A DNA stretch of 64,000 nucleotides. It comes from Escherichia coli (lineage in GTDB: Bacteria > Pseudomonadota > Gammaproteobacteria > Enterobacterales > Enterobacteriaceae). Shown one piece after another: positions 8,787 to 57,021 of this stretch. The notes under the pieces were generated by a model. It was not told the origin of the DNA, did no database searches, and worked only from the letters and a program-made list of their open reading frames with translations. Position 1 is the first letter of the stretch. Every line of letters begins with the position of its first letter. The translations under genes and the position numbers were made by a program. Where the stretch lies: the NCBI RefSeq assembly GCF_024298765.1, contig NZ_CP101210.1. One strand, written 5' to 3'.

Positions 8787-9638
8787 GTGTTAATTATCGA
8801 AACCCTGCCGCTGCTGCGTCAGCAAATTCGCCGCCTGCGTATGGAAGGTAAGCGCGTGGCGCTGGTGCCCACCATGGGTAACCTGCACGATGGCCATATG
8901 AAGCTGGTCGACGAAGCCAAAGCCCGCGCCGATGTGGTAGTGGTCAGTATTTTCGTTAACCCGATGCAGTTTGACCGCCCGGAAGATCTGGCACGTTATC
9001 CACGGACCTTGCAAGAGGACTGCGAAAAGCTGAACAAACGTAAAGTGGATCTAGTTTTCGCGCCTTCGGTAAAAGAGATCTACCCGAACGGTACAGAAAC
9101 CCACACCTATGTTGATGTTCCCGGTCTTTCCACCATGCTGGAAGGTGCCAGCCGTCCGGGACATTTTCGCGGCGTTTCGACTATTGTCAGCAAGCTGTTC
9201 AATCTGGTCCAGCCGGACATCGCCTGCTTCGGTGAAAAAGATTTTCAGCAACTGGCGCTGATCCGCAAAATGGTTGCTGATATGGGCTTTGATATTGAGA
9301 TTATCGGTGTGCCAATTATGCGCGCCAAAGACGGTCTGGCGCTGAGTTCCCGTAACGGTTATCTGACGGCGGAACAACGCAAAATTGCGCCCGGTCTGTA
9401 CAAAGTTTTAAGTTCAATTGCCGACAAATTGCAGGCTGGGGAACGGGATCTCGATGAAATTATTGCTATTGCCGGGCAAGAACTGAATGAAAAAGGCTTC
9501 CGCGCCGATGATATTCAGATTCGTGATGCCGACACGTTGCAGGAAGTCTCTGAAAACAGCAAACGGGCAGTGATTCTGGTAGCCGCCTGGCTTGGCGATG
9601 CTCGCCTGATCGACAACAAAATCGTCGAACTGGCGTAA
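8787..9638 (+). CDS. panC: pantoate--beta-alanine ligase
   Basis: 283-aa ORF ([18 protein letters not shown]...) with GTG start at 8787; 11-bp gap after panB. Confidence 0.95.
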
Positions 9639-9645
9639 TCCTTAT

Positions 9646-9680
9646 CTGGCGCTACGGCTGATGGCGCCAGTTATTAATTT
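9646..9680 (+). terminator. stem-loop (ctggcgc...gcgccag) followed by T-rich tract; likely panC terminator
   Basis: inverted repeat read directly from the sequence immediately after the panC stop. Confidence 0.5.
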
Positions 9681-9733
9681 ACCCCACGTCATGGCGATGA
9701 CGTCTGTAAGCGATTATTCATAACGCAGACAAC

Positions 9734-9937
9734 TTAGTTAGAGTTAATTAGCTTATCAACCTCTGTAAGAGATAAAGTTGCCATCTCTGCAACGTCTTCC
9801 CGAGACATTCCTTTACTCAGAAGACGCTGGGCCAGCCTTACCTTCCGGAGTCCCTCTTTATATCCCTTCTGAAATCCCTTCTCTTCAAACCACTGCGCCA
9901 ACGTCTGCCTGGTTTCTCTCCGTGTCTTTATTTCCAT
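9734..9937 (-). CDS. free-standing small ORF (67 aa) homologous to the C-terminal domain of RpnC/YadD; candidate RpnS-like small protein
   Basis: translation MEIKTRRETRQTLAQWFEE...LSKGMSREDVAEMATLSLTEVDKLINSN parallels the yadD C-terminus (TLAQWFEE...LSKGMSREDVAEMANLPLAEVDKLIS); AAGGGAA sits 3 nt upstream of the ATG; DNA is near-identical to the yadD 3' end at both flanks. Confidence 0.4.
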   Translation of the reverse strand: MEIKTRRETRQTLAQWFEEKGFQKGYKEGLRKVRLAQRLLSKGMSREDVAEMATLSLTEVDKLINSN

Positions 9938-10005
9938 ATGTTCCCTTAATTATCTGGTCAGTTAACAATAACAATTATCTGGCTATAACTGATAATGCAG
10001 ATAAC

Positions 10006-10206
10006 TTAGCTAATCAGCTTATCAACCTCAGCAAGAGGTAAATTTGCCATCTCTGCAACGTCTTCCCGAGACATCCCTTTACTCAGAAAACGCAGGGCGA
10101 ATTCCTGTCTTACTTCCTGTCTAACCTCTTGTATTACCTCCTGTCTTACCTCCTGCCTTTCCTCCTGTCTTCCCCTCTCTTCAAACCACTGCGCCAGCGT
10201 CATCAT
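10006..10206 (-). CDS. internal in-frame small ORF within the rpnC 3' end (66 aa, begins MMTLAQWFEE); candidate intragenic RpnS-type antitoxin
   Basis: ATGATG at 10206..10201 on the - strand, preceded by GGGAGGG with 6-nt spacing; matches the published concept of intragenic small proteins in rpn genes. Confidence 0.4.
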   Translation of the reverse strand: MMTLAQWFEERGRQEERQEVRQEVIQEVRQEVRQEFALRFLSKGMSREDVAEMANLPLAEVDKLIS

Positions 10207-34774: not shown

Positions 34775-34934
34775 GGGTTATTCCTTATCTATCTAATAAC
34801 GTTGAGTTTTCTGGAACCTGTCCCATTGAACTCTCGCCGGAAAGCTCAATAAGACAGGTTCTACGTTTAGTTGCCGCGCTTTTATATGCGCTTGATTTAC
34901 AACATCTTCTGGATAATTTTTACCAGAAAAATCA

Positions 34935-39085: not shown

Positions 39086-40039
<954 letters not shown>

Positions 40040-46149: not shown

Positions 46150-46356
46150 TCTGATGCGACGCTGGCCTGATAAGACGCGGGCAGCGTCGCATCAGGCATC
46201 GTGTGCAAATGTCGGATGCGGCGGGAACGCCTTATCCGACCTACAAGACCTTACATATCAACATGTTAAAATTGTAGATACTGATAAGACGCGCCAGCGT
46301 CGCATCGGGCATCTTGTGCAAATGTTGGATGCGGCATAAACGCCTATCCGACATAC
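46150..46356. repeat. cluster of about four REP units (BIME) between yacG and mutT; the last unit overlaps the mutT stop
   Basis: repeated gatgcgacgctg...cagcgtcgcatc and g(t)cggatgcggcg..aacgcctatccgacctac units read from the sequence. Confidence 0.8.
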
Positions 46357-46756: not shown

Positions 46757-46786
46757 AAAAAAGGCGCAGAATCCTGCGCCTTTTAC
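46757..46786 (-). terminator. stem-loop with U-tract downstream of secA (aaaaggcgcaggattctgcgcctttttt on the - strand)
   Basis: read directly from the sequence. Confidence 0.65.
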
Positions 46787-46801
46787 TTCAATTGTTAGCT
46801 T

Positions 46802-49507
46802 TTATTGCAGGCGACCATGGCACTGCTTGTATTTTTTACCAGAACCGCACGGGCAAGGATCATTACGTCCAACTTTGCGTTCACCGGTTTGTGCCGCCAG
46901 TGCAGCTGCGGCTGCAGAGTCGTCATCCTGATGGCTAAGCTGCTGCATTTGCGCTAAACGCTCGGCTTCCATACGACGCTGTTGTTCCAGCTCTTCAACC
47001 TCTTCAGGCATACGTACCTGGACTTTGCTCAGCGTGCTGATGACTTCATATTTCAGCGACTCCAGCATCGCTGCAAACATGGAGAACGATTCACGTTTGT
47101 ATTCCTGCTTCGGATCTTTCTGTGCATAGCCACGCAGGTGGATACCTTGACGCAGATAATCCATCGCCGCCAGGTGCTCTTTCCACAGGGAGTCAAGCGT
47201 TTGCAGCATGACGCCTTTCTCGAAGTGACGCATCATCTCAGCGCCAACCACTTCTTCTTTACGCTGATACACTTCGATGGACTGCGCCAGAATACGCTCA
47301 CGCAGCGTCTCTTCATGCAGTTCTGGCTCTTTGTCCAGCCACTCGGCAATCGGCAAATCGAGGTCGAAATCGTTCTTCAGACGTTCCTGCAGCCCCGGAA
47401 TATCCCACATTTCTTCCAGCGACTGTGGCGGAATGTAGGCATCAATGGTCGCTTTGAACACATCTTCACGAATGCTGTTGATGGTTTCACTCACATCGCT
47501 GACATCCAGCAGTTCGTTACGCTGGGAGTAAATGGCGCGACGCTGATCGTTAGCCACGTCATCATATTCCAGCAGTTGCTTACGAATGTCGAAGTTACGG
47601 CTTTCAACTTTACGCTGGGCGTTGGCAATCGCTTTGGTCACCCACGGGTGCTCGATGGCTTCGCCTGGTTTCATACCCAGTTTACGCATCATGCCGGAAA
47701 CACGGTCAGAAGCAAAAATACGCATCAGCGCATCTTCCATCGACAGGTAGAAACGTGAAGAACCGGCATCCCCCTGGCGCCCAGAACGACCGCGTAGCTG
47801 GTTATCGATACGACGAGATTCGTGACGTTCTGTACCGATGATATGCAGACCACCTGCAGCCAGTACCGCATCGTGACGCACCTGCCAGTCGGCTTTGATT
47901 TTTTCAATTTGCTCTGCGGTCGGATTTTCCAGCGCGGCAACTTCTGCCTGCCAGCTACCACCGAGCACAATATCTGTACCACGACCCGCCATGTTAGTCG
48001 CGATAGTCACCGCCGCCGGATAACCCGCTTGTGCAACAATCGCTGCTTCGTTAGCGTGGAATTTGGCGTTCAGAACGTTGTGTTTGATACCGGCTTTGGT
48101 CAGCTCGTTTGACACCAATTCCGATTTTTCGATGGAGATAGTACCCACCAGCACTGGCTGGCCCTTCGCAGTACGCTCTTTGATATCTTCGATGATCGCC
48201 TGGATTTTTTCTGCTTCAGTCATATAGACCAGATCTGGCAGATCTTTACGAATCATCGGACGGTTGGTTGGAACAACAACGGTATCCAGTTTGTAGATTG
48301 AGCTAAATTCGAAAGCTTCGGTATCAGCAGTACCGGTCATGCCCGCCAGTTTTTCATACAAACGGAAGTAGTTCTGGAAGGTGATCGACGCCAGCGTCTG
48401 GTTTTCGTTCTGGATCTGTACTCCTTCTTTCGCTTCCACTGCCTGATGCAGGCCATCGGACCAACGACGTCCCTGCATGGTACGACCGGTGTGTTCGTCA
48501 ACGATGATAACTTCACCATCTTTAACGATGTAGTCGACGTCTCGGGTAAACAGCGCATGAGCGCGCAGCGCCGCCGTTACGTGGTGCATCAGCATGATGT
48601 TGGCCGGAGAGTACAGAGACTCCCCTTCATCCATGATGCCTTCTTTCACCAGCAGTTCTTCAATCAGCACCAGACCACGTTCGGTCAGGTTCACCTGGCG
48701 AGATTTTTCGTCCACCGAGAAGTGGCCTTCGCCCTGGAAGGTTTCGGAGTCTTCTTTTTCCTGACGGATCAGGTGCGGAATAATTTTATTCACGCGTTTA
48801 TACATTTCCGAGCTGTCTTCTGCCGGGCCGGAAATGATCAGCGGTGTACGCGCTTCATCGATCAGGATGGAGTCCACTTCGTCCACCAGCGCATAGTGCA
48901 GTTTACGCTGTACACGTTCTTCAGGGCTGAACGCCATGTTATCGCGCAGGTAGTCAAAGCCGTATTCGTTGTTCGTACCGTAAGTGATGTCAGCTGCGTA
49001 AGCTTCGCGCTTTGCCGGTGCTGGCATGCCCGGCAGGTTGATGCCGACTGTCAGGCCGAGGAATTCAAACAACGGACGGTTGTTTTCGGCGTCACGTTGC
49101 GCCAGGTAATCGTTGACGGTAACAACGTGTACCCCCTTACCGGTTAATGCGTTCAGGTAAGCAGGCAGCGTTGCGGTCAGGGTTTTACCTTCACCGGTAC
49201 GCATTTCCGCGATGCAGCGTTCGTTAAGAACCATACCGCCGAGTAACTGAACGTCGAAGTGACGCATACCAAAGACGCGCTTACTTGCCTCACGCACCAC
49301 AGCGAAAGCTTCTGGGATCAGATTTTCCAGCACTTCGCCTTTTTCCAGACGTGCACGAAACTCTGCGGTTTTCCCTTTCAGTTCTTCGTCGGAGAGTTTT
49401 TCCATCTCCGGTTCCATGGCATTGATGATGTTGACGACTTTGCGCATCCGGCGCAGGGTGCGATCGTTACGACTACCGAAAACTTTAGTTAATAATTTGA
49501 TTAGCAT
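46802..49507 (-). CDS. secA: preprotein translocase ATPase SecA
   Basis: 901-aa ORF recognised as SecA, including the C-terminal zinc-binding [14 protein letters not shown]. Confidence 0.97.
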
Positions 49508-51329: not shown

Positions 51330-52481
51330 TTAATCAGCTTGCTTACGCAGGAATGCTGGGATATCCAGATAATCCGGCTCTTTCGCAGTTTGCGGTGCGT
51401 TGTCATTCACGACTTTAGCAACCGGTTTCTGCTCCTGAGTCAGCGGTGCCATCCCGTGCTGCTGGTAGCGATCCATCACTGGCTGCTGAACCTGCTTATT
51501 GGTCACCAGGGTGATTTCAGGACGTTTGTCCATACCGATACCTGTCGCAACAACGGTTACGCGCAGCTCGTCATTCATATCCGGGTCAAGAGAAGTACCG
51601 ATAACGACAGTTGCGTTGTCGGATGCAAATGCACGGATGGTGTTACCTACCGTTTCGAACTCATCCAGACGCAGGTCGAAGCCCGCCGTGATGTTAACCA
51701 GCACGCCGCGCGCGCCAGACAGATCGATATCTTCCAGCAGCGGAGAGGAGATAGCCATTTCAGCAGCTTCTTCCGCACGGTCTTCGCCGCTCGCCACACC
51801 AGAACCCATCATTGCGTAGCCCATTTCAGACATTACGGTACGTACGTCTGCAAAGTCCACGTTCATCAGGCCTGGACGAGTAATCAGTTCAGCGATACCT
51901 TGCACAGCACCTTTCAGTACATCGTTCGCTGCGCCAAATGCATCCAGCAGGGAGATACCGCGGCCCAAGACTTTCAGCAGTTTGTCGTTAGGGATAGTGA
52001 TCAGAGAGTCCACATGCTTGGACAGTTCAGTGATCCCCTGCTCAGCGAATGCCATACGCTTCTTGCCTTCAAAGTTGAAAGGCTTAGTCACGACAGCAAC
52101 GGTCAGGATCCCCAAATCTTTTGCCACTTCAGCGACAACTGGTGCTGCACCAGTACCGGTACCACCACCCATACCCGCAGCAATAAAGACCATGTCTGCA
52201 CCTTCCAGCGCCGCACGCAGTGCATCGCGATCCTCATCAGCCGCATTACGGCCAACTTCTGGATTTGCGCCAGCTCCCAGTCCTTTGGTGATACCGCTAC
52301 CGATTTGAATCGTCTGTCCAACCGCTGTTTTACGCAGCGCTTGTGCATCGGTATTTACCGCGAAGAATTCAACACCTTCAATGCGCTCGCGCACCATGTG
52401 TTCAACAGCATTACCGCCGCCGCCGCCGACGCCGATGACTTTAATCACCGCGTCATTGGTAAGTTCCATTGGTTCAAACAT
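51330..52481 (-). CDS. ftsZ: cell division GTPase FtsZ
   Basis: 383-aa ORF; tubulin signature GGGTGTG. Confidence 0.97.
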
Positions 52482-52541
52482 AGTTTCTCTCCGATTTGTG
52501 CCTGTCGCCTGAGGCCGTAATCATCGTCGGCCTCATAAAAA

Positions 52542-53804
52542 TTAAAACTCTTTTCGCAGCCAACTATTGAGTCGCTTGATCCACGAGCCAACTGATGCTG
52601 TAACACGTTTTTCTACTTCAGCTTCACCGTTAAGATGTGACTCTTTCCCATAGTGAAGCAATCCCACCGCCGTCGAATAATACGGCTCCTGAGCATAATC
52701 CGTTAAACCGGTAATGTTCAGCGGCGCGCCGATACGCACTTGCGTATGAAACACGCGCTGAGCACAGGCTGCAAGACCTTCGATCTGCGCTGCGCCACCA
52801 GTTAAAACAATGCCTGCCGCCAGGTGATGTTTAACCCCTTGTTGGCGAAGCTTTTCCTGCAACTGCAATATCTCTTCGTTGACCAGGTTGAGCAGCTCGG
52901 TATAGCGCGGCTCGATCACCTCTGCCAGGGTCTGACGTTGCAGACTCCGCGGTGGACGACCGCCTACGCTCGGCACTTCCACGCTCTCATCTTTTCCAAC
53001 GATGGAACCCAGCGCACAACCGTGGCGAACTTTAATCGCTTCGGCGTCGCTTGGCGGCGTGCCAAAGGCGTAAGCGATATCACTGGTCACGACATTGCCA
53101 GCATAAGGAATTACCTTAGTGTGGCGCAATGCCCCACCGGTATAAACGGCGATATCCATTGTACCACCACCGATATCGACGACGCAGACACCCAGTTCAC
53201 GTTCATCTTCCGTCAATACCGAATAACTTGATGCCAGTCCGGCAAATATCAGTTGGTCAACTTTCAACCCACAACGTTCAACCGCTTTGACGATGTTTTT
53301 CGCCATATCGTTGTGACATGTGATCAGGTGCACTTTTGCCTGCATCCGCACGCCCGAAAGTCCTACCGGATTCTTGATCCCTTCCTGATAGTCAATCGCA
53401 TACTCTTGCGGGATCACATGCAGCACACGATGCTCATCGCGCACACGCACCGATTTCGCGGTATGGACGACGTTTTCCACATCTTCTTGCGTCACTTCTT
53501 CTTCAGAAATAGGCACCATACCAATTTCATTCTGGCAGCTGATGTGCTTACCAGAAAGCGCCAGATATACCGAAGAGATCTGACAATCTGCCATCAATTC
53601 TGCCTGGTCAATGGCGCGTTGTACGCACTTGACCACGGATTCGAGGTCGTTCACCCCGCCTTTATCCATACCACGCGACGGGCAGCTGCCCACGCCAATG
53701 ATATTGACCATACCGTCGGGCAGAACTTCCCCTACTAAAGCGGCAACCTTCGCGGTACCAATCTCCAGTCCTACTACCAGTTTTCTGTCCGTCGCCTTGA
53801 TCAT
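52542..53804 (-). CDS. ftsA: cell division protein FtsA (actin-like ATPase)
   Basis: 420-aa ORF recognised as FtsA. Confidence 0.97.

Positions 53805-54632: not shown

Positions 54633-57021
<2,389 letters not shown>

Follow-up and report, generated by a model that had tools for sequence, protein, structure and literature searches.

Within the Escherichia coli gene rpnC, a GGGAGGG motif stands just upstream of an in-frame ATG, and an array of 12-bp repeats follows downstream. We therefore asked whether this locus encodes a second, smaller protein nested in the first, and what the repeats would contribute to either product. The stretch of DNA that was analysed, referred to here as the window, comprises 64,000 nucleotides of an E. 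coli genome (NCBI RefSeq assembly GCF_024298765.1, contig NZ_CP101210.1); its relevant features are collected in Table 1. We consider it very probable that rpnC carries a gene-within-gene toxin-antitoxin system of the RpnL/RpnS type, a candidate antiphage system in which repeats in a helix set the pairing between the short (S) and the long (L) product. This system is already known. It was described experimentally in 2023 for the rpnC gene of K-12 by Zhong et al. (PNAS 120:e2307382120, PMC10400941), the source paper on RpnL/RpnS, and the present analysis is an independent rediscovery. It illustrates that a reading of raw sequence can by itself recover both a gene-within-gene toxin-antitoxin and its specificity repeat, two elements that standard annotation misses.

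Table 1. Features of the rpnC locus, in window coordinates.
Feature	Position	Strand	Source
rpnC (yadD), full-length RpnC-L, 306 aa, predicted toxic nuclease of the pair	10926..10006	-	ORF list
YhgA-like PD-(D/E)XK nuclease domain, aa 7-207 of RpnC	10306..10908	-	Pfam profile match (predicted)
Internal Shine-Dalgarno sequence GGGAGGG, coding for part of Thr-Gly-Gly in RpnC-L	10213..10219	-	sequence
In-frame internal start ATGATG (Met-Met) of RpnC-S	10201..10206	-	sequence; use predicted by K-12 orthology
Nested rpnC-S, 66 aa, identical to the RpnC C-terminus, presumed antitoxin	10006..10206	-	translation
Six 12-bp units, RGRQ EERQ EVRQ EVIQ EVRQ EVRQ, residues 11-34 of RpnC-S	10105..10176	-	codon register
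rpnC-Ss, 67 aa, free-standing RpnC-S paralogue	9734..9937	-	ORF list; PMC10400941 (rpnCSs)
rpnC-Ss ribosome-binding site AAGGGA	9942..9947	-	sequence
rpnC-Ss repeat region, KGFQ KGYK EGLR KV	9839..9880	-	sequence

The identity of the gene is clear from profile matches and from its position. In a Pfam scan, PF04754 matched RpnC at residues 7-207 (model positions 1-201 of 203, E 2.9e-85), and the NCBIfam model TIGR01784 for the Rpn family scored 271 bits against a cutoff of 52.1. An identical protein in RefSeq, WP_000339897.1, is named Rpn family recombination-promoting nuclease and lies between panD and panC. E. coli strain 104 was 100% identical to the window across a 1301-base query, and the gene order yadE-panD-rpnC-panC-panB is common to strain 104 and K-12 BW25113. 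The window gene is orthologous to K-12 rpnC, with which it shares the panD-panC position. This position was occupied by rpnC in all 20 of the E. coli loci that were fetched, and a match to the locus was found in 5,424 of 5,426 E. coli genomes, at a median of one place per genome. No model of PADLOC v2.0.0 matched RpnC; its matches to the 66-aa protein, RmrA and Cas11a, were weak (E 0.007 and 0.02) and were disregarded. In some species, free-standing RpnS-like proteins go by the name DUF4351 (PF14261); scanning all 306 aa of RpnC against Pfam gave no match to this profile at an independent E of up to 10. Pfam matches of RpnC to DUF2802 and SOTI (E 0.08 and 0.31) were treated as noise.

Some RefSeq records carry the names 'putative transposase' and 'ISNCY family transposase', and these names point to another reading, in which rpnC is a transposase gene and its C-terminal domain a DNA-binding helix-turn-helix whose repeats tune recognition. 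Against these names stand the scores of the two corresponding NCBIfam equivalog models, which reached 328 bits (NF007418, 'ISNCY family transposase') and 308 bits where the cutoff is 583. In addition, 0 inverted-repeat pairs were found in the region 9600..11250, and Zhong et al. find no terminal repeats, target duplications or evidence of transposition. Because flanking inverted repeats are missing, the panD-panC site is fixed in the fetched loci and carriage is near-universal, the transposase label is unsupported, and we regard this reading as extremely unlikely.

The original prediction had placed GGGAGGG 6 nt before an in-frame ATGATG at 10206..10201 and had derived from it a 66-aa product equal to the C-terminal domain of RpnC. 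The sequence confirms both points: the spacer reads CAGTCT, the start lies in the rpnC frame, and translation from 10206 gives MMTLAQWFEERGRQEERQEVRQEVIQEVRQEVRQEFALRFLSKGMSREDVAEMANLPLAEVDKLIS (66 aa), ending at the rpnC stop codon (10008..10006). Its length fits the RpnL/RpnS systems, in which the internal ribosome-binding site and start precede the final 50-75 codons. This product matched the C-terminal end of TIGR01784 (positions 218-273, the last 56 of the model) with an E-value of 1.3e-9. Conservation of the initiation motif was tested in 10 of the 20 fetched loci, K-12 among them, and GGGAGGG-N-AGTCT-ATGATG was present in frame and at the same position of the gene in 10/10. The first base of the spacer alone varies among these loci (G, C or A), with the result that the codon before Ser-Met-Met specifies Q, E or K. 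The site of the window differs from that of K-12 by one spacer base.

We then considered whether such a motif might simply be expected by chance. The general pattern GGAGG-N4-9-ATG is not enriched in the 64-kb window, with 6 occurrences against 9.1 expected from shuffles. Of the six, the rpnC site alone is found far inside a long open reading frame, preceded by 266 open codons; three others stand at the starts of ORFs of 146-306 aa and two head ORFs of 28 and 29 aa. On the opposite strand, both of these short ORFs (start at 39712, minus strand, 28 aa; start at 56481, plus strand, 29 aa) are overlapped by longer ones, and we took them to be chance occurrences. For the rpnC site, conservation across strains together with the published initiation data does place the internal start above chance.

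These initiation data come from K-12, where Zhong et al. used ribosome profiling with Onc112 and retapamulin and found an internal initiation site in all five rpn genes (for rpnC, their Fig. 2D). The initiation mapping proposed with the original prediction was therefore already available for K-12 rpnC. The same authors detected K-12 RpnC-S by immunoblot as a chromosomally SPA-tagged protein. They also cite differential RNA-seq data that place internal transcription starts in every rpn gene of K-12, the short transcript being the more abundant one. In the window, a motif scan based on a crude consensus test found no sigma-70 consensus on the minus strand inside rpnC, so an internal transcript of the window allele has no support from sequence alone. 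Promoter candidates picked out by eye inside rpnC were all below threshold.

The missing consensus promoter and the unremarkable number of GGAGG-N4-9-ATG matches would both suit an allele that makes no small protein at all. In such an allele ATGATG would be a plain Met-Met, GGGAGGG would be Gly-Gly codons, and the repeat would be no more than a charged helix of low complexity in the only product. Several observations argue otherwise: the K-12 site one spacer base away gives both an initiation signal and a tagged protein (PMC10400941), the motif is kept in 10/10 tested loci while the adjacent codon shifts between Q, E and K, and a free-standing copy of the domain with its own ribosome-binding site, rpnC-Ss, shows that it can be encoded alone. 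We therefore judge it very unlikely that the window allele makes no small protein, and consider that RpnC-S is probably translated from it by analogy with K-12. RefSeq annotates no RpnC-S feature at this locus.

The comparison with K-12 RpnC-L/RpnC-S also defines what is constant and what is variable in this gene. Locus, nuclease domain, internal Shine-Dalgarno sequence and ATGATG are shared, as are the flanks of RpnC-S (MMTLAQWFEE... on one side and ...LSKGMSREDVAEMANLPLAE on the other), and the repeat starts at residue 11 in both. K-12 differs in having four KGIE-type units where the window has six of the RQEV type, in the length of RpnC (300 aa, compared with 306 aa in the window), and in its C-terminal end (DKVINLI, compared with DKLIS).

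A six-unit, 12-bp repeat of the RQEV type within RpnC-S had likewise been predicted, and both Tandem Repeats Finder and the table of units agreed with it, with the qualification that the units are imperfect. Tandem Repeats Finder called an indel-free array of period 12 at 10103..10171, in 5.8 copies with 82% matches and a score of 96, and a separate repeat search returned six copies at a spacing of 12 nt. Read in codon register, the six units begin at 10176, 10164, 10152, 10140, 10128 and 10116, and they agree with the consensus GAGGTAAGACAG at 9, 10, 12, 10, 11 and 11 of 12 positions, respectively; agreement is poorest in the first of them, RGRQ. The array is thus real but imperfect, and exact repeated stretches in it reach only ∼10 nt. 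A plus-strand ORF of 58 aa with a TTG start (10129..10305) runs antisense to the repeat and is without support.

The number of units varies widely among E. coli. In the 20 fetched loci, RpnC had a length of 290, 294, 298, 300, 306, 310 or 314 aa, and its variable segment held 2, 3, 4, 6, 7 or 8 four-residue units. These units come in two flavours, the RQEV type of the window and the KGIE type of K-12 (KGIE KGIQ QGRQ EVSQ). For 60 genomes, drawn as a spread sample from the 5,424 with a match, we also determined how long the counterpart of 10006..10320 is. Relative to the window, differences of -48, -36, -24, 0, +12 and +24 bp were found, all of them exact multiples of 12 bp. The claim that unit number is polymorphic, that the frame is kept and that both proteins are affected is therefore well founded (2-8 units, in multiples of 12 bp). 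The copy-number comparison across E. coli that had been suggested as a check returned polymorphism, and not the uniform array named as the contrary outcome.

Slipped-strand change, which the original prediction had put forward as the source of this variation, fared less well: it is plausible and stands unproven. The rpnC gene was identical in 19 of 19 checkable genomes among the 60 best matches, and its repeat variation, as far as these sequences indicate, lies between lineages. Slippage is doubted because of the imperfect units and the stability of the rpnC array among the closest relatives checked. A stronger version of the idea, which is compatible with the toxin-antitoxin explanation, would have rpnC behave as a contingency locus, with slippage altering the units at high frequency within a culture as a fast switch. 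The length classes do step by exact 12-bp units, as such a locus would predict. Units with 82% matches and exact stretches of ∼10 nt are, however, a poor substrate for slippage, and the 17 genomes at 99.9-100% identity among the 60 best matches kept a span equal to that of the window, while two fetched loci of the group with a span 12 bp longer encoded an identical RpnC (WP_000339897.1). Moreover, Zhong et al. state that the mechanism of repeat expansion is open, and our search of the literature after 2023 for an answer turned up a commentary and a review only. We hold a rapid switch of this kind to be unlikely.

Simple-sequence contingency loci resemble rpnC in having a coding tandem repeat with a strain-variable number of units. 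They differ in that the 12-bp unit of rpnC always keeps the frame, so that on/off switching does not arise, and in that the rpnC units are imperfect and the array showed no change among the closest genomes checked.

We next turned to the place of the repeat in the protein. Zhong et al. reported that the four-residue repeats of Rpn proteins start 8-20 residues past the initiating Met, in the first helix, that their number is variable between strains, and that RpnC is the richest in repeats among those of E. coli. In their crystal structure of RpnA-S (7TH0), two three-helix bundles form a dimer via the long first helix. An AlphaFold2 model of the window RpnC-S, built from a 15-sequence alignment and with a mean pLDDT of 69, had helices at residues 4-12, 21-42, 47-53 and 58-65 and a low-confidence break at 13-20 (residues 15-19 below 50). 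In this model the helix 21-42 begins within repeat unit 3 and takes in units 4-6. The original prediction had described the repeat as a linker of variable length. This description was not upheld: the published work puts the repeat in the dimer-interface helix, and units 4-6 are helical in the model. Judged from both, the repeat is better described as part of a long dimerisation and specificity helix than as a flexible linker.

When the RpnC-S model was compared with the PDB using Foldseek, no significant matches were found. Among the 50 matches listed, 7TH0 had the highest target-normalised TM-score (0.84), and it superposed on the model with an rmsd of 1.8 Å over 45 columns (20% identity, Foldseek E 2.7). 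The remaining matches were mostly helix-turn-helix proteins (DeoR, KorB, ParB, TrpR). These could be taken to favour a DNA-binding domain of a transposase, but all of the helix-turn-helix matches had E-values of at least 0.5. When the RpnC-S sequence was used to search the PDB, 7TH0 was missed; a designed repeat protein came first (E 0.0026), and the rest had E-values above 0.7. As modelled, RpnC-S would have in common with RpnA-S a small helical domain with one long first helix and two short helices; the two differ in sequence (∼20% identity). The likeness in fold is consistent with membership of the same family and is no proof of it.

How repeat number could matter for function follows from the genetics reported for K-12. 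According to Zhong et al., RpnS small proteins are antitoxins that block both the toxicity of RpnL and SOS induction. As measured with an SOS reporter in K-12, RpnC-S blocked RpnC-L only at equal repeat number. An extra KGIE unit in RpnC-S, or in RpnC-L and RpnC-S together, led to a loss of neutralisation unless both partners carried the unit. Complex formation and a block of DNA cleavage in vitro were shown on RpnA, not on RpnC, and protection against certain phages was shown for the plasmid paralogue RpnP2 only (PMC10400941).

Applied to the window, these results suggest the following mechanism. RpnC-L would consist of an N-terminal PD-(D/E)XK DNA endonuclease, predicted to be toxic, and a small helical domain at the C-terminus. 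The internal GGGAGGG and in-frame ATG would yield RpnC-S, which in K-12 is served by an internal transcript of its own. RpnC-S would then bind the identical domain of RpnC-L via the long helix 1, and the nuclease would be held inactive. The 12-bp repeats would act as 4-aa units that lengthen helix 1, and their number would decide which S is the partner of a given L. As both proteins are read from shared DNA, a change in the repeats alters toxin and antitoxin alike. A gain or loss of units would accordingly keep the pair cognate and at the same time make it incompatible with alleles of other lengths. By analogy with K-12, RpnC-S of the window probably neutralises its RpnC-L, and a role of RpnC in phage defence may be inferred from the paralogue. 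The locus would in that case hold a candidate antiphage nuclease in which shared DNA forces the co-evolution of toxin and antitoxin, a principle that has already been published.

A comparison drawn by Zhong et al. is that with EcoR124I and EcoR124II, where the in-frame number of a 4-aa helix repeat (TAEL) changes specificity as well. In these enzymes the repeats set the spacing of DNA recognition, while those of Rpn proteins set toxin-antitoxin pairing, and the proteins are unrelated.

The window contains a second copy of the small domain, rpnC-Ss, which starts 68 bp downstream of rpnC and is not found in K-12. It matched TIGR01784 at positions 213-273 with an E-value of 9.8e-9. Direct repeats tie it to rpnC-S, one of 91 nt at 90% identity with a start-to-start distance of 266 and one of 68 nt at 74%. 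The two are related through duplication. The repeat region of rpnC-Ss has itself changed in length. Compared with strain 2014C-3338, the sole difference in 1301 bases of the window is a 12-bp gap (AGAAGGGATTTC, one KGFQ) at ∼9883, and 43 of the 60 best-matching genomes share the 1313-bp span of 2014C-3338. The rpnC-Ss array is therefore one 12-bp unit shorter in the window than in its closest relatives.

This indel speaks in favour of the contingency reading. A change of one rpnC-Ss unit as the only difference in 1.3 kb between the window and 2014C-3338, taken together with the longer span in 43 of 60 best matches, indicates that unit turnover can be recent. The pattern of sequence similarity between the two small genes points to recombination as well. 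Their 3' blocks are mosaic, with S-to-Ss identities of up to 98.9% across strains versus 83-94% within a strain, which suggests that recombination contributes to the change in unit number.

We subsequently compared the length of the variable segment in the two small genes, and found it unequal between S and Ss in 17 of 17 loci that bear rpnC-Ss, in 10 distinct length combinations. In the window, the segment measures 15 residues in Ss versus 25 in RpnC-S, and the junction in the common type of Ss also falls 2 residues outside the four-residue register. Given this length mismatch and the rule of equal repeat number, Ss is expected not to inhibit its own neighbour. A possible consequence, which we put forward with doubt, is that rpnC-Ss is no spare cognate antitoxin but a donor cassette that would reprogram the helix of L and S, or else an orphan antitoxin directed against another Rpn allele or a phage-borne factor. 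The mosaic 3' blocks described above lend the idea of a donor cassette some support. If Ss is indeed non-cognate, the single 12-bp indel would mark ongoing turnover of the rpnC-Ss array.

The arrangement has a counterpart in YpaA/RpnE-Ss, which is also a separate copy of the S domain directly downstream of an rpn gene (PMC10400941). According to the phylogeny of Zhong et al., YpaA/RpnE-Ss arose independently; tagging showed it to be expressed, while rpnC-Ss is known from sequence. The names that RefSeq gives to rpnC-Ss differ from genome to genome, and include 'transposase', 'hypothetical protein' and 'RpnC/YadD family protein'.

Downstream of rpnC, which encodes the full-length nuclease RpnC-L and the nested 66-aa product RpnC-S, lies a separate small paralogue, rpnC-Ss, that corresponds to rpnCSs in Zhong et al. 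2023 (PMC10400941). No copy of rpnC-Ss is present in K-12, and the RefSeq product names assigned to this gene vary by genome ('transposase', 'hypothetical protein' or 'RpnC/YadD family protein'). When the window was compared with strain 2014C-3338, the sole difference over 1301 bases was one 12-bp unit (AGAAGGGATTTC, encoding KGFQ), which is carried by that strain and missing from the rpnC-Ss array of the window. The longer span of 2014C-3338 recurs in 43 of the 60 genomes that match best, and the unit was therefore gained or lost recently, at a site in the rpnC-Ss array and not in rpnC itself.

Features of the window, with positions in the whole stretch
Feature	Position	Strand	Description
rpnC-Ss	9734..9937	-	67 aa, MEIKTRRETRQTLAQWFEEKGFQKGYKEGLRKVRLAQRLLSKGMSREDVAEMATLSLTEVDKLINSN; free-standing RpnC C-terminal domain paralogue, own ribosome-binding site
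rpnC-Ss repeat region	9839..9880		missing unit at about 9883
PssrA	52473..52562	-	Rfam, 105 bits
tp2	34777..34890	+	Rfam, 103 bits
STnc40	46757..46826	-	Rfam, 83 bits
naRNA4	46164..46241	-	Rfam, 74 bits
Short ORF	39626..39712	-	28 aa; perfect GGAGG Shine-Dalgarno motif ahead
Short ORF	56481..56570	+	29 aa; perfect GGAGG Shine-Dalgarno motif ahead

We compared RpnC-S with RpnC-Ss in the 17 fetched E. coli loci that bear both (L001, L003-L007 and L010-L020), and the two variable segments were unequal in length in each of these genomes. In the window the segments span 25 and 15 residues, respectively (10105..10176 versus 9839..9880), and examples from other loci include 33/19, 29/15, 9/17 and 33/25. 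The common Ss type is also two residues off the 4-residue register, with the junction KVRLAQ in place of EVRQEFAQ. Given these length differences, the published 'same repeat number' rule would make RpnC-Ss non-cognate to its neighbour.

The conserved 3' blocks of the two copies were mosaic (9742..9832 for Ss and 10008..10098 for S in the window, plus the corresponding blocks in L003-L011). An S and an Ss from different strains were up to 98.9% identical, whereas S and Ss inside one strain shared 83-94% identity, a pattern which suggests that sequence has been exchanged between the copies. In the region of about 9700..10000, the window contains a 266-bp tandem duplication unit with the S domain, where K-12 (L002) has one copy. 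The K-12 rpnC 3' end (…DKVINLI, then TAAGTTACCTGTGTTATGA) is equally like the sequence after the window Ss and that after the window rpnC, which is compatible with collapse or fusion of the two copies. Nested RpnC-S (10006..10206, minus strand) was annotated in none of the RefSeq records inspected, so standard annotation does not show a small protein for which there is experimental support.

Elsewhere in the window, four Rfam matches scored over the gathering score. The PssrA match bridges the junction between the long minus-strand ORFs 51330..52481 and 52542..53804, and that to STnc40 overlaps the 3' end of another, 46802..49507. The two short ORFs in the table each overlap a longer opposite-strand ORF and are therefore probably due to chance.
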